DNA from: Escherichia phage AnYang | Sequence record: MK234886 | Strand: one strand, 5' to 3' | DNA length: 64,000 bases | Shown here: one piece after another, positions 16,564 to 48,938 of the stretch | Layout of the letters: each line of letters begins with the position of its first letter | How positions within the stretch are numbered: position 1 is the first letter of the stretch | Notes under the pieces: generated by a model | Seen by the model: only the letters and a program-made list of their open reading frames with translations | Database searches by the model: none | Told to the model about the DNA's origin: nothing | Program-made: the position numbers and the translations under genes

Positions 16564-16571
16564 TATAAATA
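16564..16571 (+). promoter_or_regulatory. late promoter TATAAATA (gene 36)
   Basis: Exact TATAAATA after the gene 35 terminator, 25 nt before the gene 36 ATG. Confidence 0.65.
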
Positions 16572-16596
16572 CGTTATCTAATAAAGAGGAATAACT

Positions 16597-17244
16597 ATGG
16601 CTGATTTAAAATTAGGCTCAACTGCTGGAGGTTCCGTTATATGGCACCAAGGTAACTTTCCGTTGACGCCGGTATCAAATGATATTTTATATAAGACCTA
16701 CAAAATCTATACCGAATTTAATAAGCCTCAAGCCGCAGATAACGACTTTGTTTCTAAAGCAGCAGGTGGTTCTTACAAAGGGACTGTTAACTTTGAAAAG
16801 GGATTAATGTTTAATGATTCCACTGGTTATGGAATCAAACTTGGTGCAAGAAATGGCGGACAACCTTTTACTGCTTCATTTAAGATTAAAGGGCCTTTTG
16901 GCTTTGAAACTGAAACAGGAACCCCGTTTGTAATCTTTGACCCAACCACTACGGTAGGAGCTAACCGACTTACTGTAATGGGTGATATCCTAGGTCGTCA
17001 AATTAAAGACGAATCTGGAAGAGTATTTTCTCCAGGGAATACTCCTACTAAGGCCCAGGTGGGTTTAAGCGATGTAGATAACGCAAAACAGGTCCAAATA
17101 AATAATAGTAACATACAATCCATGGCTGGTGTTCTTTCAGCCCCGAATTTCATATCTAGGAACCCAGGAACATTGAACGAACACGTTCCTCGTATTGACC
17201 AGGTTGTTCTTAGAGGTACATCTGAAGATTTTGGATATTATTAA
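16597..17244 (+). CDS. 36: long tail fibre distal connector gp36
   Basis: 215 aa; late promoter upstream; position. Confidence 0.8.
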   Translation: MADLKLGSTAGGSVIWHQGNFPLTPVSNDILYKTYKIYTEFNKPQAADNDFVSKAAGGSYKGTVNFEKGLMFNDSTGYGIKLGARNGGQPFTASFKIKGPFGFETETGTPFVIFDPTTTVGANRLTVMGDILGRQIKDESGRVFSPGNTPTKAQVGLSDVDNAKQVQINNSNIQSMAGVLSAPNFISRNPGTLNEHVPRIDQVVLRGTSEDFGYY

Positions 17245-17252
17245 GAGGCATT

Positions 17253-20200
17253 ATGGCTACTTTAAAATCGATACAATTTAAAAGAAGTAAAATAGCAGGA
17301 GCCAAGCCTACTGCAGCTCAGTTAGATGAAGGCGAACTGGCTATTAACTTGCGTGACCGCACTATTTTTACCAAGTCAGACCAGGGACAGATTATTGATT
17401 TAGGTTTTGCGAAGGGTGGAACTATTGATGGGGATGTTCTTCAAAACGGGACATTTAACCTTAACGGTAACCAATTTGTTTATGCCGGTAAATATATTGA
17501 ATTTTTACCTAAGACTGCCGGTAACGGTGCCTGGGCTAACCAACATCTGAATAAAGCCCCTATCTTTACAGATTTGAGTTCAACTACTTCAACTTCTGAA
17601 TACCACCCTTTGATTAAGCAACGTTATAAAGACGGCACTTTTTCAGCAGGTACATTAGTAAGCGAAGGCAGTTTTAAATTCCATTATATCAATGAAACGG
17701 GTGATTCAAAATATTGGACGTTTAATCGTAATGGTAGTTTTATTGTAGATAATGGCAATATTGAGGTCCGCGCAGGTAATATTAACTCGGCCAATGGTGT
17801 TATCACTGGTCCTGAAATTGTTACTAAAAATATTAATTTCAGTACAAAACCCTTTGTAGCTAATGCCAACATCGGCTATGACTGGGTTTCTTTGCCCACC
17901 TGGGTTTATAACCCACCAGCTGATGGTTCTGATGATACTACTAACGGTTTAAACTATTTGCGTAAATTACGCGCATCAAGTGCATCAAGTATTTTCCATG
18001 AAATTGCTGATTGTCGCAAAGGTAAGCCACAAGAAATTTCTTGGTGGACTGGTGTCGGTCCTTCGTCTTTCCAATGGGCTTTTGATAACTCTGGACGTAT
18101 TACTGCAGGTAAATCTATTTCTGTCGGTCTTCCTGATAATGGTGCAAATGGACGTTATCCACTTGAGTCTGCAATTTCTATTGGTATTGCAATTGGTGAT
18201 AACGATACTGGTATTAAATGGGTCCGTGACGGTGTTTATGACCTGATGGCTAATGGTATTTCATCTGCTACCATTTTGAATAACGGTATTAATAGCACTA
18301 AGAAATTGATGGTTGGTTATAGCCGTGATTCGGGTACTACATGGGATTTCCCAAATACCAACCAGGCTATGTTCACTGCACGTACTGATGTTGATGGCAA
18401 TAATAACGGTGATGGTCAGACTCATATCGGTTATAGCAGCAATGCCAAGATGTATCACTATTTCCGTGGCACGGGTCGTATGTCTGTTAGCATGGGTGAT
18501 GGACTTCTTGTTGAGCCAGGTATTTTAGATATTAAAACCGGTACTAATACGTTATCTTTCCGCGCCGATGGTACCGTAGCTTCAACACAAAGAACAAAAT
18601 TTGATAATGGCCTAATGCTTAACTCTAATACCAGAAATGACGGTATTACATTTACTGCTGCTTCATCCATTGACGGCACTAAACAGATTTTATGGGAAGG
18701 CGGTACTCGAGCAGGTCAGAATAAGAGTTATGTAACTGTTAAAGCATGGGGTAATTCATTTAACGCCACTGGCGATAAATATCGTGAAACTGTATTTGAA
18801 GTTAGTGACGGGCAAGGATACCATTTTTATTCTCAACGGGGCGCGCCTACAAATGATGAAACTGTTGGCCCTGTATTAATGCAAATTGCAGGTTCTTTAA
18901 ATGCAAGAGGAACATTAAACACTGATAGCAATCTTTATGTGAAAGGATTAAGTACACATGAAGGTACCGTAACCATGAATAACGGCCTTCGCTTAACAGG
19001 CGGCGCTAATATAAGTGGCCAAGTTAAAATTGGCGGTGTTAATGATGCATTGAGAATTTGGAACGACCGATATGGTGCCGTTTTCCGTCGCTCAGAAACA
19101 TCATTACATATTATCCCAACCAATGAAAATGAAGGGGAAAACGGTCCGATAAGCAACCTTCGTCCGTTTAGTATTGAATTAGGTACCGGTGCCATTAATA
19201 TAGGCCATTCTTTAATGATAGGCAACTCGGCACGCGCCGATGGCCTGTTGAATATTGATACCAAAGCATTCTTGATTACAATTAACAGTCATTCGAAAAT
19301 TAACCCTAACTATCGTATGGACCTGGAAAACGGTGCTTATATAAATGCTTTGATGGATTCAAATGGTCGTTCAGCTGGTGCAGGTTCATTTGCTTCCCAG
19401 AATAACGAAAACGTCCGCGCGCCATTTTATATGAATATCGACCGTGATGATACCAGCACTTATGTTCCTATGATAAAACAACGTTATGTTCAGGGCAATG
19501 GTTGTTTTTCGATAGGTACTTTGCTTAATAACGGTAATTTCCGTGTTCATTACCATGCAGGCGGCGATGGTGGTTCTACCGGTGCTCAGATTGCTGATTA
19601 CGGTTGGGAATTCACTAAATCCGGTGATTTTGTATCCCCTAAACGCGTTTCTGCTGGTGGTACAGTTTATCTTGGCACCGATGGTAATATTACGGGTGGT
19701 TCATTACCTAACTTTGCTAACTTGAACTTGACATTAGACCGTAAAGTCAATACCCGAATGGTTTCTTATTCAGGTACTGGCGGTTGGTATAAATTAGCCA
19801 CTGTAACAATGCCACAATCCACTTCAACCGTCACATTCGAAATTGCTGGTGGAAATGGTTATAATATTAACACTCCACACCAATGCGTTACTTCGAAAAT
19901 TGTTTTAAGAACTTCGAATAACAATCCGAAAGGTGTTAACGCGGTTGTTTGGTCGATGGATGTTGCTCAAGGTATTAAAAATGTCGCAACTGTTAATACA
20001 TCAGGTGATGTTTATGACATTTATGTAAATGTAGGTACATATGCTCAGGCTCTAGCAGTTTCTTATTATGCTACTCCTAATGCAACCATCAACCAGATAT
20101 TTGCTTCAGATTCATCCGGCGCAACAGAAACTGCAGTTGAACTTCCAGCCGAGGCTATCCAAGGGGTGGTTGCTAGTGTTCTGAATAACTTGGCTCCTAC

Positions 20201-22057: not shown

Positions 22058-22065
22058 TATAAATA
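22058..22065 (+). promoter_or_regulatory. late promoter TATAAATA (holin t)
   Basis: Exact TATAAATA 18 nt upstream of the t ATG. Confidence 0.65.
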
Positions 22066-22083
22066 TCTTTAAAGGAGAAAAGT

Positions 22084-22737
22084 ATGGAACCAAAAGTAGG
22101 ATTTTCATTATCAGACCTACTTTTTGGACTTCTTGATAGAATTTTTAAAGATACTTCTTCCGGGAAAGTAGTTTTTTCCCGGGTCCTAGTCGTGGTATTA
22201 TTGTTCTTTATGGCACTGGTTTGGTATAAAGGCGAGTATATTCTAAACTTTTACAAAGAGACAACTTATGCCTCTTATACTGAAATGATTAGACAAGACC
22301 AGGACAATAGATTTAAAATTGCGGCTATCGAGCAGCTCCGAATAGTGCATTCTTCTTCAGGCGCAGACTTCACAGCAATATATTCTTTTAGACCAACCAA
22401 CATGAATTATTTTGTGGATATGGTGGCTTACGAGGGTAAATTACCGGAAACGGTAGACGCAAAAAACACGGGAGGGTTTCCAATTGACAAAACGTCAATA
22501 GAATATATGGCGGGAGTTAACGGGAACTATTTTGAATCAAGTACTGAAACTGTATTTCTTCCTACAAAGAAGAAAACACAATTCACGTATATGTTTTCGT
22601 GCCCGTTTTTTAATTTGGATAACGTCTACGCCGGCTCGATATCGTTGTACTGGTATGATATCAAACCGGATTTAGGATTTCCTAGACTTTCGTCTATGTG
22701 CGGTCAAGCCGGAAGGACATTAGGTCGAACACGTTAG
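22084..22737 (+). CDS. t: holin
   Basis: 217 aa; near-collinear with T4 holin T (single N-terminal TMD, LPTKKKTQFTYMFSCPFFNLDNVYAG). Confidence 0.9.
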   Translation: MEPKVGFSLSDLLFGLLDRIFKDTSSGKVVFSRVLVVVLLFFMALVWYKGEYILNFYKETTYASYTEMIRQDQDNRFKIAAIEQLRIVHSSSGADFTAIYSFRPTNMNYFVDMVAYEGKLPETVDAKNTGGFPIDKTSIEYMAGVNGNYFESSTETVFLPTKKKTQFTYMFSCPFFNLDNVYAGSISLYWYDIKPDLGFPRLSSMCGQAGRTLGRTR

Positions 22738-34340: not shown

Positions 34341-34383
34341 AAAGTCTCCTAATTGTATGGCACTCATGTACCATACATATTTA

Positions 34384-36201
34384 TTACGACATCCAGGCCT
34401 TACGGAGTTGAGGGTCATTTCCGAGGAGCATTTCGAACTGTTCTTTCCAATCTTCAGGCAATTGAACCACATCAAATTTAGGGTCTTGAATCATTCGACG
34501 GTATTCAGCCTTCTCAAGAGAACCTAGTCCTTTGATATAACGAATAGAATGTTTTGGTAGAGAGTCCTTAGCTTTGGTATAACTAGGAACATCATAGAAC
34601 CATTCCTGTTCTTTACCAACCTGGGCAATAATCACCGGAGTTTTACAGAATCGTACTCGACCCTGTTCGAACAATTCAGGCCATTGACTAAAGAAGGCTA
34701 GCAATGATGGATAAATCGAACCAGTACCATCCACATCAGCATCAGTCATGATAGCGATATTACGATAGTTAGTTTTCTCTGCGGGTTCGCCAATAACCAG
34801 TCCAGTGATTGCACAGATATCAAATAGTTCCTTGTTCTTCATGATATCTGTTGCTGTCATTCCCCAGGTATTCATAACCTTACCACGTAATGGATACCCG
34901 CCTTGAAGGTCTTTATTACGAACTTCAATGAAAGGACCCATAGCGGAATCACCTTCGGTTAGGAACAGGGTTGTATCAGCATCTTTGCCGTATAAGTTAG
35001 CTTTAATATGCTTATGGACCTTGGCTTTAGAAGCTTTCTTAGCGGCTTTAGTTTCGGCAGCCTTTTCAGCTGCTAATTTACGTGCTAAAGCAGCTTCAAC
35101 GATAGGCATAATCAACCCTTCGTCTTTAAGAATATACTGTGAGATTTTCTTTGCATCAATTTGAATATGGTTACGAATTTCACCGAATGGTGACGTCAAA
35201 CGTTCTTTAGTCTGGGAATCAAAACGCATATTACTCATATCGCGAATGAACATCAGCATAGTTAAGCATTCTTTAACTCGTGCCTTACTTACTTCGATGC
35301 CTTTATATTTCTTCTTGATGCCTGGCAAGAGATGTTCGCAGATATCATCAAACACACATTCAACATGATGACCACCGTTCTTAGTATGAATATTGTTCAC
35401 ATAAGTTAGGTGACGGAATCCATCTGGAGATGTAGTAAATGCCAATGAGACATTATCGGTTTCTTGAATTACTACATCTTTACCAAATTGATTGGCATAC
35501 TTTTTAAAGTTGCCATCTACTTTTTTACCATTAAAAGTAAATTGAATATCAGGATAAATTACAGCTAGAGTTTTAAGACGATCTAGAGTAATATCCAGAT
35601 AAATTTGTGATAGAGAGTTCTCTTCAAAATGATTAAAGTCTGGAGTGAATATAACCGAAGTACCCTTACCTTTAGATTTCTTAGTAGACCAACCTTTGTT
35701 TTCCATTCCATTGGAACAGTTAACTGTAATTTCATTCTCGCCATCAGAGGTGATGCCTGTGAACAAAACAGAGAAGATATTAGTTAAACTACTACCGACA
35801 CCATTCATGCCGCCTGTCTTACGCTCTGCATCATCTCCAAAGTTACCACCTGCCTTTGGGATAGTCCATGCAGCTACAGGACCTGGGATTTGTTCACCAT
35901 TTTGATCGATGACCATTGCTTGTGGAATACCACGACCATTATCAGAAACTGAAACCTGGTTATTCTTAATTTGAACATCAATTTTATTTGCGAACTTAAA
36001 ATTGGTGCGAATAGCTTCATCGACAGAGTTATCAATGATTTCGTCAATTAATTTAACCAGTCCAGGAACATAGTTCACCTGAGTAAAATTACCAAACAGG
36101 AATCGACCGTGAGCTTCATTAGCACTGGAGCCAATATACATCCCACTACGTTTTTTGATATGTTCAATGTCGGACAGTACTTTAATTTCATTCTTAATCA
36201 T
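34384..36201 (-). CDS. 39: DNA topoisomerase II large subunit, fused gp39+gp60
   Basis: 605-aa continuous ORF with GHKL ATPase N-terminus and TOPRIM region; no split or bypass element as in T4 gene 60. Confidence 0.9.
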   Translation of the reverse strand: MIKNEIKVLSDIEHIKKRSGMYIGSSANEAHGRFLFGNFTQVNYVPGLVKLIDEIIDNSVDEAIRTNFKFANKIDVQIKNNQVSVSDNGRGIPQAMVIDQNGEQIPGPVAAWTIPKAGGNFGDDAERKTGGMNGVGSSLTNIFSVLFTGITSDGENEITVNCSNGMENKGWSTKKSKGKGTSVIFTPDFNHFEENSLSQIYLDITLDRLKTLAVIYPDIQFTFNGKKVDGNFKKYANQFGKDVVIQETDNVSLAFTTSPDGFRHLTYVNNIHTKNGGHHVECVFDDICEHLLPGIKKKYKGIEVSKARVKECLTMLMFIRDMSNMRFDSQTKERLTSPFGEIRNHIQIDAKKISQYILKDEGLIMPIVEAALARKLAAEKAAETKAAKKASKAKVHKHIKANLYGKDADTTLFLTEGDSAMGPFIEVRNKDLQGGYPLRGKVMNTWGMTATDIMKNKELFDICAITGLVIGEPAEKTNYRNIAIMTDADVDGTGSIYPSLLAFFSQWPELFEQGRVRFCKTPVIIAQVGKEQEWFYDVPSYTKAKDSLPKHSIRYIKGLGSLEKAEYRRMIQDPKFDVVQLPEDWKEQFEMLLGNDPQLRKAWMS

Positions 36202-46031: not shown

Positions 46032-46039
46032 TATTTATA
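46032..46039 (-). promoter_or_regulatory. late promoter TATAAATA (soc)
   Basis: Minus-strand TATAAATA about 30 nt upstream of the soc ATG. Confidence 0.6.
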
Positions 46040-46730
46040 TATCTCTAAAAGAGTATATTAAATTTTTGAGAGCACTTGCGGTAACGTCATATTTACCTTT
46101 AAGTTCTTTGACTACAGGACCTGTAGTTGGTTTACCTAATGAAAGCCAAATATTATAGATTTCGCTTTTCAATGGTTCATGCCAATGAGGAGCAGTTCGT
46201 TGAGCTTTAGAAGTGGCTTCAGATATTAATTTATTCCCACCATTCTCATAAAACTCTTTCATTATTTCTGATTGACGAGCTTTACGTTCAGGCCTATTCT
46301 GAGCTATAGCTTGAGCCTTCCTCATTTTAATCTTAGTTTCAGGTTTATTTAATCTAAGCTTGTGCTCTATACACTGTTCTTCAGTCCATTTATGTCCTTC
46401 GCTGCCAGCGCCACCTGGTAATATATTCAAGCATTCGTTAGGATGCTTTTCTCTTATTTTGGCTATTAAAAGTCTTTCATGATTAAAAGATTCTTCTAAA
46501 TTTTGGTGGCCTACAAACCAACGTATTTTATATTTTAGACCATACTTTTTATACATATTCCATAAGATTTTGCCAGAACCTGGATATCTATCTTTATTTG
46601 GATTTAGTATAAAGGTTTCATGTTTACCACCATACCAAAAGACGCCTTTCGGCGTCCTAATTTTTATCAAATAAGTTCTATAAAACTTAGCCTTAATAGC
46701 CACGGTCCTGCCTTGCAAAGTTTTCAGCAT
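46035..46730 (-). CDS. putative GIY-YIG homing endonuclease, SegF-like by position
   Basis: 231 aa; N-terminal YLIKIRTPKGVFWYGGKHETF module; between 56 and soc where T4 has segF. Confidence 0.5.
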   Translation of the reverse strand: MLKTLQGRTVAIKAKFYRTYLIKIRTPKGVFWYGGKHETFILNPNKDRYPGSGKILWNMYKKYGLKYKIRWFVGHQNLEESFNHERLLIAKIREKHPNECLNILPGGAGSEGHKWTEEQCIEHKLRLNKPETKIKMRKAQAIAQNRPERKARQSEIMKEFYENGGNKLISEATSKAQRTAPHWHEPLKSEIYNIWLSLGKPTTGPVVKELKGKYDVTASALKNLIYSFRDI

Positions 46731-47211
46731 TCTTCAGATAATAAAGTTTAAACATTTCTTCAGCCGACATATTCAGGCCAATAGCCATATTGAATACGAA
46801 GTGCATAATATCAATGAGTTCAAATTTAATTTCAAGCTGGTCTTCAGGAGACATTTCTGAAATAGGTTTGGCTTGTGCTTCCGGGTAACGGGCTTTCCAT
46901 TTTTTCCATACAGCAGATGCATCTTTCTCACCTTTAGACATTTCACCGAGGGAAGTCAGAAGTTCACGGAATTCATCGTCAATACAATCTTTCTGTTCAC
47001 GCATCCAAGCAACAACATCACCGGCTGTCGCTAATTTGTCCGGATGGTAACAATATTCACGGTCATTAGCCAAACGGACCTGTAATGATTTCTGCATATC
47101 AAGCATAACCTGCAGAGGGTCTTTATCTTCGTGAATCAGAGCATTAAAATAAGCTTCCTCAGCTTTATCAACACCGTCAATCAGGTTTGCGCATTCGTTA
47201 AAGTATGCCAT
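46693..47211 (-). CDS. 56: dCTP pyrophosphatase gp56 (MazG-like)
   Basis: 172 aa; size and synteny as T4 gp56. Confidence 0.85.
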   Translation of the reverse strand: MAYFNECANLIDGVDKAEEAYFNALIHEDKDPLQVMLDMQKSLQVRLANDREYCYHPDKLATAGDVVAWMREQKDCIDDEFRELLTSLGEMSKGEKDASAVWKKWKARYPEAQAKPISEMSPEDQLEIKFELIDIMHFVFNMAIGLNMSAEEMFKLYYLKNAENFARQDRGY

Positions 47212-47304
47212 TATATTTTTTCCTTTTTCAATTCATTAGTAAGTTAGATAATTATAAACTGTTTAGATTAAAGCGAATAAATATTAATTTAACAGGAGGA
47301 TAAC

Positions 47305-47505
47305 ATGGGTAGTATTTTTTACCAAATCTGGAAATTGGCCGAAAAGAAAGACAAGAAAATGATGTTAGGTTTTCTTGCGCTAGACGTATTCCTTTGGAAT
47401 CTTCTGGTAGTTCCTGTAGCCGCTAGCCAAGGTATAATTTTACCAGCGGTTACAATGGAACACGTGTTAAGCATAATTGGATTCTTTACCGGAATCCACG
47501 CTTAA
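47305..47505 (+). CDS. hypothetical small membrane protein (opposite strand to neighbours)
   Basis: 66 aa; strong RBS AGGAGG 5 nt before ATG; two hydrophobic segments; stop overlaps gp61 stop. Confidence 0.5.
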   Translation: MGSIFYQIWKLAEKKDKKMMLGFLALDVFLWNLLVVPVAASQGIILPAVTMEHVLSIIGFFTGIHA

Positions 47506-48530
47506 ATTTTGGAATATTTTGAAAGTCTCATTTTTGCCATTAGACCTTGGGCGATATTTGCTTTCATATATGCCAGTACATCATTTATATCGGCTTTATC
47601 TTTCATAACCATATCATTTATATCTTTAGAAGGCCATGGAGCCTTGTCCCAGAATAGAACCCTTTCGCCAGCATCAACTAATCGTTGCATACGCTTAATT
47701 GTGTCAGGATGGCGGGGTTCATTGTCCATTACCCAGGCACGAGTTTCTTTACACGGAACCATAGCCAAGTCCAACGACCCACCAGTAATTGCTATTGCAT
47801 TAGGTACGAATAATGAATCAATAGGACCTTCCATTACCCACACCAACTGACGTTCGTCAACTGTATCCATTCCATATATTTTTGTAGCTTGGTCATGAGC
47901 TTTTATTGTAATATATTTTTGTGGAGCATCTTTACGTAAGGCTCGACCCTGAAAACTTTCAATTTGTTTATTCTTATTGAAAATTGGAATAACCAAACGA
48001 GGTTCAGGCATTTCTTTAGAATAGGTCCCTGGATTCACAGAGTTAACTAATGCAGGCCATTCTTTAGTAAACCATAGCCGATTCCATTTGTTTTCAGGAA
48101 TGCAACGTAGTGTTACGTATTTGATGATAGGATGGTCCTTTGGCATCCTATCTAATCGTTCACAGAAATTAAGCTTTTCGATGACAGGCATCTTAGCTTT
48201 AATTTTTTCAGATATCTCCACCTTAGGTGCAGCTTGTCTCCCGAACGATTGCTCTTTATGTTTCTCAAGAATATATTCACGATATAAATCAGGCTCGTAT
48301 TCGTATAGATACTTCTTAATTCCTGCTGAATAGTCACAGTTAAAACAGTGCAGCATTACGGAGCCGTCATTAGCAGGATAGGCCCAAAAACGAGCTTTGT
48401 TCTCATCTTTTAGGGAGTCACCGCATACACGACAACGACAGTTTAATTTAAAATCACTACCAGTTACTTGTCTGAATTTAGGTTGGTAATTCAAGGCACG
48501 TACAGCAAATTCTCTATCGACATATGACAT
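47502..48530 (-). CDS. 61: DNA primase gp61
   Basis: 342 aa; N-terminal zinc ribbon (CRCRVCGD...CFNCDYS) and TOPRIM; T4 gp61-like. Confidence 0.9.
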   Translation of the reverse strand: MSYVDREFAVRALNYQPKFRQVTGSDFKLNCRCRVCGDSLKDENKARFWAYPANDGSVMLHCFNCDYSAGIKKYLYEYEPDLYREYILEKHKEQSFGRQAAPKVEISEKIKAKMPVIEKLNFCERLDRMPKDHPIIKYVTLRCIPENKWNRLWFTKEWPALVNSVNPGTYSKEMPEPRLVIPIFNKNKQIESFQGRALRKDAPQKYITIKAHDQATKIYGMDTVDERQLVWVMEGPIDSLFVPNAIAITGGSLDLAMVPCKETRAWVMDNEPRHPDTIKRMQRLVDAGERVLFWDKAPWPSKDINDMVMKDKADINDVLAYMKANIAQGLMAKMRLSKYSKI

Positions 48531-48568
48531 TATTTTTCCTTGGGCTCTAAATTAATAGAGCCATTATA

Positions 48569-48730: not shown

Positions 48731-48746
48731 AGGCTCCTGGCCTTAT

Positions 48747-48938
48747 TTATATTACGAAAATAGCTTTATCACCATTTGCATCAGTGACTTCATAGGTATC
48801 TTCGTTGTAAAGTGGAATAATCCAAGTCACACCATCACCAGCAATAATATGGATAGCTTCTTGGTCTTTTGATACGATTTCATATTCTTCGAATAATTCG
48901 AATACAGAAATCTTAGAGCCCGTACACATTGCACTCAT
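48747..48938 (-). CDS. hypothetical protein
   Basis: 63-aa ORF. Confidence 0.4.
   Translation of the reverse strand: MSAMCTGSKISVFELFEEYEIVSKDQEAIHIIAGDGVTWIIPLYNEDTYEVTDANGDKAIFVI

Follow-up and report, generated by a model that had tools for sequence, protein, structure and literature searches.

Between the genes for the DNA primase (gene 61) and the dCTPase/dUTPase (gene 56) of Escherichia phage AnYang, a short open reading frame (ORF) runs against the direction of its neighbors, and its position raises the questions of whether it is a genuine gene, when it would be expressed and what its product might do. We examined it within a window of 64,000 nucleotides of sequence record MK234886. 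The window belongs to a Dhakavirus, that is, a JS98-like T4-type phage, and the region around the ORF is 97% identical to that of Salmonella phage ABTNLsp5 and 90–92% identical to those of JS98, JS10, QL01 and IME341. A preliminary description had proposed a 66-codon plus-strand ORF that diverges from gene 56, converges on gene 61 with overlapping stop codons and lies inside an otherwise minus-strand region. The ORF listing and gene coordinates bear this out: the frame opens with an ATG, and the genes flanking it are all on the minus strand. The features to which we refer throughout are as follows.

46693..47211, minus strand: gene 56 (dCTPase/dUTPase), the divergent neighbor.
47251..47277, minus strand: middle-promoter-like element for gene 56, with a MotA-box-like TTCGCTTTA, 12 nt and TATAAT (regular-expression scan and cross-lineage comparison).
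47276..47283, plus strand: late-promoter-like box AATAAATA (T4 consensus TATAAATA; A at −13), found by motif conservation.
47294..47299, plus strand: Shine-Dalgarno sequence AGGAGG, with a 5-nt spacer to the ATG (read from the sequence).
47305..47505, plus strand: dam.1-family coding sequence, the "type A" paralog, 66 aa (ATG start; ORF listing and PHROG 2024).
47359..47427, plus strand: predicted transmembrane helix, codons 19–41, with invariant Trp31-Asn32 and Pro37 (hydropathy, AlphaFold, and TMHMM on the RB69 homolog).
47437..47496, plus strand: second hydrophobic or amphipathic segment, codons 45–64, with invariant Pro47 and near-invariant Glu52.
47502..47505: TTAA, in which the stop codons of the ORF (plus) and gene 61 (minus) overlap.
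47502..48530, minus strand: gene 61 (DNA primase), the convergent neighbor.

A 93-bp spacer separates gene 56 from the divergent ORF. The near-perfect ribosome-binding site noted earlier is indeed present, and the arrangement AGGAGG-N5-ATG occurs only once in the 64-kb window, at this start codon. GGAGG is kept upstream of the ORF in almost all lineages that we compared, and the 16-nt leader is predicted to be unstructured. From this strong and unstructured initiation region we infer efficient translation. At the other end of the frame, a TTAA-type overlap with the gene 61 stop codon is also found in T4, T6, RB69, Moon and a further T4-like locus. The interval between soc and gene 56 holds a segF ortholog (46035..46730, minus strand; 70% identical to T4 SegF), partly overlapping the 3' end of the dCTPase gene. 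This mobile homing-endonuclease gene occupies the site that it also has in T4; ABTNLsp5 shares it and JS98 lacks it.

The pattern of substitution shows that the ORF is a real gene, encoding a small hydrophobic protein under purifying selection. Within Dhakavirus, dN/dS in the sense frame is 0.06–0.2; between genera dS is saturated, with dN only 0.13–0.24. Differences fall on codon positions 1, 2 and 3 in the ratio 58:33:151, and the frame stays open throughout the lineages examined. The encoded protein matches PHROG 2024 with E = 3e-28 over residues 1–64 of the 65-position profile, and the T4 copy does so with E = 4.6e-31. The earlier proposal of a small gene on the strand opposite the early genes, with a hydrophobic product, stands in this respect. 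It could still be argued that the ORF opened by chance in the 61–56 spacer and that its conservation merely reflects promoters or a gene on the minus strand: the spacer does contain promoter-like elements, the antisense frame −1 is likewise long and open in several phages, and the JS98 and T4 RefSeq records leave the ORF without annotation. Yet dN/dS is about 0.1, the protein motif is retained between genera at saturated dS, and homologs of the family occur in unrelated genomic contexts. Coding selection, invariant columns and a broken antisense frame effectively refute a chance origin, to which we attach a negligible probability. The candidate minus-strand gene in frame −1 is interrupted in Q7622, CGG4-1 and Moon, and in T4 it has neither a start codon nor a Shine-Dalgarno sequence. 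A search of Rfam on both strands returned only noise outside the ORF and no family over the region, and no excess of RNA structure is predicted there.

The ORF is the Dhakavirus "type A" member of the dam.1 (PHROG 2024) family, and thus a gene already known. It matches the family profile over its full length, carries the family core, occupies the family locus and is preceded by a late-type box. The core, W-N-x4-P-x5-G-x3-P-x-V-x2-[ED], is common to type A, type B and the Moon protein. Trp31, Asn32, Pro37 and Pro47 are invariant in two alignments of 13 and 17 sequences and Val49 is nearly so; Gly43 is invariant among the 13 sequences and replaced by Ala in 2 of the 17 in the second alignment. 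The acidic residue near position 52 is near-invariant across the family, being Glu52 in the window and Asp in type B. Annotated Dhakavirus orthologs are 94–98% identical to the window protein; those of ABTNLsp5 (QPI13468.1) and of phages C6, IME341 and QL01 are plus-strand hypothetical proteins at the same locus and differ from it in nothing of substance.

The preliminary description had suggested a synteny check in related phages, and this shows that the position and orientation of the ORF are conserved across T-even-type phages. Synteny and orientation are identical in JS98, ABTNLsp5, Q7622, CGG4-1, Moon, T4, RB69, T6, VR25 and metagenomic T4-like contigs; Marfa and S16-type phages likewise carry the family at this place and in this orientation. 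In every T4-like genome that we inspected, a dam.1 gene on the late strand directly adjoins the 3' end of gene 61. The arrangement is the standard, widely annotated T-even-type layout and no peculiarity of AnYang. By tblastn, the window protein is 90–98% identical to its Dhakavirus counterparts, 70–79% to those of Marfa-like Klebsiella phages and Gaprivervirus, about 60% to those of Kanagawavirus and Gelderlandvirus, and 34–40% to those of Moon, Merlin and PEi20. This type A query recovered 131 phage records and a type B query 726 (T6, RB3, wV7, PP01 and RB69 among them), and the family as a whole comprises more than 800; for scale, about 1010 phage records carry a gp61 at least 60% identical to that of the window. 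The family is restricted to Tevenvirinae of enterobacteria and a few uncultured phages. An exhaustive profile search of 1.84 billion representatives returned 17 clusters only, all of 33–82 aa, and no longer protein carrying the dam.1 motif. Within the window, comparing the family profile with the six-frame translation revealed no paralog elsewhere.

One element of the earlier account does not survive comparison with T4. It had placed dmd and the 61.x genes of T4 at this position on the early strand and drawn a contrast with the phage studied here. The T4 order is 41-dmd-61.4-sp-61.2-61.1-61-[dam.1, plus strand]-dam-56-segF-soc, so that in T4, as in the window, gene 61 has dmd and the 61.x genes on its upstream side, and a dam.1 homolog occupies the same T4 position on the plus strand. 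JS98 and the window have the T4 gene order minus dam. The gene is named dam.1 in T4T (HM137666, 17724..17924), "Dam.1" in T6 and RB69ORF029w in RB69. In the T4 RefSeq record NC_000866, the 309 bp that separate dam from gene 61 contain a 66-codon copy (17738..17938, plus strand) that is intact but carries no annotation; AF158101, another T4 record, likewise leaves an intact 66-codon dam.1 unannotated. The T4 and window copies share membership of PHROG 2024, a length of 65–66 aa, locus and orientation, stop codons overlapping those of gene 61, an upstream NATAAATA box, GGAGG and the Trp-Asn/Pro/Gly/Pro/acidic core. They differ in sequence, the window "type A" and T4 "type B" proteins being about 20% identical overall and 40% identical over the 25-residue core, and in that a dam methylase gene stands between dam.1 and gene 56 in T4 but not in the window.

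When would such a gene be expressed? Its orientation had been taken to imply separate, possibly late, expression, and the upstream sequence favors that view. In 9 of 11 T4-like lineages a NATAAATA motif precedes the ATG by 24–30 nt; the window box is at −29, ends 21 nt short of the ATG and predicts a transcription start near 47289. The box takes the following forms.

Marfa-like phages and Q7622: TATAAATA (perfect).
Window, RB69 and T6: AATAAATA.
T4: GATAAATA.
RZ and one metagenomic contig: CATAAATA.
Moon and CGG4-1: ATTAAATA.

GGAGG and the NATAAATA box are the only upstream elements common to lineages whose flanks have diverged, and in 45 shuffled upstream bases ATAAATA arises with a chance of 0.5–8% per lineage. 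The broader motif WATAAATA is scarce in the window (9 observed against 15.7 expected), and three other occurrences precede the late genes 36, t and soc by 18–31 nt. Two genes of the AnYang genome serve as positive controls for the late-promoter motif, since a perfect TATAAATA stands 18–25 nt before the ATG of t (region 22058-22737, plus strand) and of a 215-aa ORF (region 16564-17244, plus strand) that we take to be gene 36-like; the latter ORF gave no Pfam match. Two further WATAAATA boxes lie on the early (minus) strand and are candidate late promoters: one at 48744-48751, 13 nt before a 61.1-like ORF (48730), and one at 34378-34385, 10–37 nt before an ORF of 50–59 aa (34367/34340).

Position −13 of the window box, an A, is also an A in 9 of 50 listed T4 late promoters (Geiduschek and Kassavetis, PMC2988020) and is either A or T in related phages (Nolan et al., PMC1524935). 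Early and middle transcripts of T4 share one polarity, while late transcripts may have either (PMC2988020). Because the polarity of early and middle transcription is opposite to that of the ORF and a late motif is conserved upstream, late expression is the best reading, and gp55-dependent transcription from the predicted box is plausible. The annotation of phage Lutter marks the equivalent GATAAATA as a promoter. Against a late promoter stand the imperfect boxes of T4 (GATAAATA) and of Moon and CGG4-1 (ATTAAATA), as well as a hidden Markov model list of 31 RB69 late promoters, none of which precedes RB69ORF029w (Nolan et al. 2006). A σ70-type promoter on the plus strand was also considered and rejected, the best candidates matching at 9 of 12 positions, no better than shuffled sequence. 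A literature search returned no mention of dam.1, RB69ORF029w or T4 Ribo-seq and no expression data for the gene. On the favored reading, RNA polymerase with gp55 would start late in infection at AATAAATA (47276-47283), and the 16-nt unstructured leader with its perfect AGGAGG would then allow efficient translation.

The same spacer appears to serve gene 56 on the other strand. The minus-strand arrangement of TTCGCTTTA, 12 nt and TATAAT resembles a MotA-dependent middle promoter, and it is kept in JS98, ABTNLsp5, RZ (where it is a perfect ATGCTTCA), CGG4-1 and RB69. This element and the plus-strand late box stand back-to-back and overlap (47251-47283), which explains the conserved "GCGAATAAATA".

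At the downstream end, the stop codons of the convergent genes overlap, and no terminator could fit between the two. A hairpin inside the ORF (47498 to 47478) was considered as a terminator for gene 61 and set aside, as it is specific to the window and not conserved; early transcription of gene 61 thus probably reads through, antisense to the ORF. Conversely, we found no convincing plus-strand terminator within gene 61, and a late transcript of the ORF must then enter the primase gene in antisense. Each gene would in this way be traversed by the other's transcript, the ORF mRNA continuing into gene 61 and early gene 61 read-through running across the ORF.

Such overlap invites the suggestion that RNA is the main product of the locus, a late plus-strand transcript silencing gene 61 (or read-through from gene 56) in antisense, with the peptide secondary. 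In nearly all lineages the overlapping stop codons and the lack of an intervening terminator would indeed carry the transcript into gene 61, but selection acts at the protein level, with invariant residues and a conserved start codon and Shine-Dalgarno sequence, and the region shows no Rfam family and no excess of structure. Silencing would be at most an added function, and we consider RNA as the main product very unlikely. Small membrane toxins of type I toxin-antitoxin systems are paired with a dedicated antisense sRNA gene; at this locus the only antisense RNA predicted across the ORF is read-through from gene 61, and Rfam gave no hit.

A conserved GC-rich hairpin at 48542-48562, between 61.1 and 61, shows compensatory stem changes across the equivalent sites in relatives and is absent in T4 and T6. 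It is preceded on the minus strand by TGATATAAT, an extended −10 element, and is probably a minus-strand TGnTATAAT promoter with a 5' stem-loop of gene 61. It could also form the end of the plus-strand ORF transcript; in the annotation of Moon its equivalent is a plus-strand terminator.

We next turn to the protein itself, for which two transmembrane domains had been proposed. The first of these holds up, whereas the second is marginal. An AlphaFold model (pLDDT 73, from a 17-sequence alignment) has a helix at residues 15–41 (pLDDT 83–86), a loop at 42–50 and a short helix at 51–62, and TMHMM on RB69ORF029w predicts one transmembrane helix, at 21–41. Segment 45–64 of the window protein contains two Pro, a Glu and a His, and may be either a marginal second transmembrane domain or a helix on the periplasmic surface. 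The N-terminus is basic, with a net charge of +3 to +5 in most lineages and +2 in Moon, and no Lys, Arg, Asp or Glu follows residue 52 in the C-terminal part, which ends ...IIGFFTGIHA. In the topology suggested by these predictions, the basic N-terminus would stay in the cytoplasm and helix 19–41 would cross the inner membrane, while the C-terminal segment would either return as a hairpin or rest on the periplasmic face. Were it a hairpin, Asn32 and Glu52 would lie at similar depth and might pair.

As a whole, the explanation that we favor, and hold with considerable confidence, is that the ORF is a dam.1-family gene, probably transcribed late by gp55-programmed RNA polymerase from its own box, and encodes a small inner-membrane protein. 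The role of that protein is a matter for tentative suggestion. Our guess, less likely than not when taken by itself, is a modulator of a late envelope event such as the timing of lysis; its buried polar residues would mediate self-association or contact with a larger membrane protein, and it would be accessory rather than essential. Searches of Pfam, NCBIfam, PADLOC, PDB sequences and the BFVD fold database returned nothing beyond the dam.1 family itself. To our knowledge, decades of hunts for T4 rapid-lysis mutants mapped nothing at the dam.1 locus. Modulators of the type of AcrZ, MgrB and lambda CIII are similar in size, consist of a single helix or hairpin and have conserved polar residues of a kind that could support contacts between helices; they are not homologous to the ORF product, and the likeness is one of analogy only.

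More specific functions can be weighed against this general role. A lysis protein of the holin or pinholin type, which by itself makes the inner membrane permeable as infection ends, would fit a product that is small, hydrophobic, probably late and equipped with at least one predicted transmembrane helix (about 19–41). Class II holins and pinholins, and the T4 proteins T, RI and RIII, resemble it in being small, membrane-bound and probably late and in having polar residues within hydrophobic segments, but none of these holins and lysis regulators shows a sequence or profile match to it. A homolog from phage OE5505 is labeled "Holin" in UniProt, two distant relatives weakly match the holin PHROG 3427 (E = 5e-4 and 2e-3), and in one group of distant relatives a T4-type lysozyme gene follows about 900 bp downstream. 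The UniProt label is, however, an unverified automatic annotation, the other distant relatives adjoin tail genes or an integrase rather than a lysozyme, and neither the window nor the T4 protein matches a holin in Pfam or PHROG. Moreover, the charged C-terminal tail of holins is missing, the charge cluster being N-terminal instead; the neighbors encode a dCTPase and a primase and form no lysis cassette; and a canonical T holin is already present at 22084..22737 (PF11031, E = 1e-65). We regard a holin as unlikely.

Evolutionary behavior would fit another candidate role, that of a membrane factor for host interaction that acts in superinfection exclusion or counters a membrane-based defense or abortive-infection effector. 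Such a role would drive rapid diversification, and the family does comprise two paralog types of about 20% identity that occur singly or in tandem, with pseudogenization and replacement at a fixed locus between conserved flanks. Its confinement to Tevenvirinae of enterobacteria and a few uncultured phages is in keeping with this, as is a homolog near the integrase of one uncultured temperate phage. On the other hand, purifying selection within lineages is strong, PADLOC gave no matches, and the protein resembles neither Imm nor Sp nor any other ORF of the window, though imm may lie outside it. The known exclusion genes of T4 are early rather than late, which also counts against a host-interaction role, and we regard it as possible though doubtful. 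A more speculative combination, which we rate as improbable, would make the dam.1 proteins an overlooked class of late effector in which an Asn-Glu/Asp hairpin binds holin T or a host membrane or defense protein, while the mRNA helps to shut off the primase. If so, hairpin binding would set the timing of lysis or block a late abortive response, and antisense dam.1 mRNA through gene 61 would help to end primase expression late in infection.

The turnover at the locus is seen most clearly where more than one copy is present. In VR25 an intact type B gene is followed, after 8 nt, by an intact type A gene (locus nt 1795-2201), and in NC-G a frameshifted type A gene is followed by an intact type B gene (locus nt 1444-1893), so the tandem may occur in either order. 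In RZ (locus nt 2001-2875) and Yersinia phage P8 (2525-3363), an HNH-type homing endonuclease gene now separates the dam.1 locus from gene 61; its insertion destroyed the type A gene, of which only the C-terminal 31–33 codons are left, but spared an intact type B gene upstream. This pattern of tandem copies, frameshift and HNH insertion suggests an accessory, possibly conflict-related, role.

That the ORF is already known, annotated as hypothetical in hundreds of T4-like genomes, named dam.1 and assigned to a PHROG, does not mean that the records treat it consistently. A gene under clear purifying selection is missing from the reference records of T4 and JS98; the RefSeq entries of both JS98 and JS10 lack it, and a 291-bp gap is left empty in JS98. 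As a result of these omissions, dam.1 is absent from the reference proteomes, from Pfam and from the T4 omics analyses that depend on them; its absence from the T4 reference proteome in particular would explain why there is no Pfam family. Among the uncharacterized genes of T-even phages, dam.1 is one of the few to combine a strong ribosome-binding site, a late-type promoter and predicted membrane localization, and this combination makes it a cheap knockout target for work on lysis timing or late phage-host conflict.

False names for the ORF also stand in several GenBank records: it is called "DNA packaging ATPase" in SAKp28, P8, UPEC01 and MY02, "dCTP pyrophosphatase" in CGG4-1 and dhabil, and "thymidylate synthase" in SHP1 and 04086. 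The label "Holin" on the T4-like homolog from phage OE5505 in UniProt is a further case of automatic naming.

The distant members of the family come from uncultured, siphophage-like contigs of roughly 30–40 kb, where they follow genes for a J-like tail-tip protein and endonuclease VII and are followed by genes for soluble proteins of 180 and 106 aa without assignment; elsewhere they adjoin an integrase, a RelA/SpoT gene or genes resembling those for tail chaperones. A lysis cassette was sought around them, and a T4-type lysozyme gene was found near one group only and not near the others. When used as tblastn queries against cultured phages, these distant relatives recovered the dam.1 genes of T4-like phages only. 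On a 2-kb metagenomic contig (nt 129-1383), a distant member of 59 aa precedes, by 17 bp, a gene for a 352-aa RelA/SpoT-domain protein, and may act as the small membrane component of an alarmone-synthetase module.
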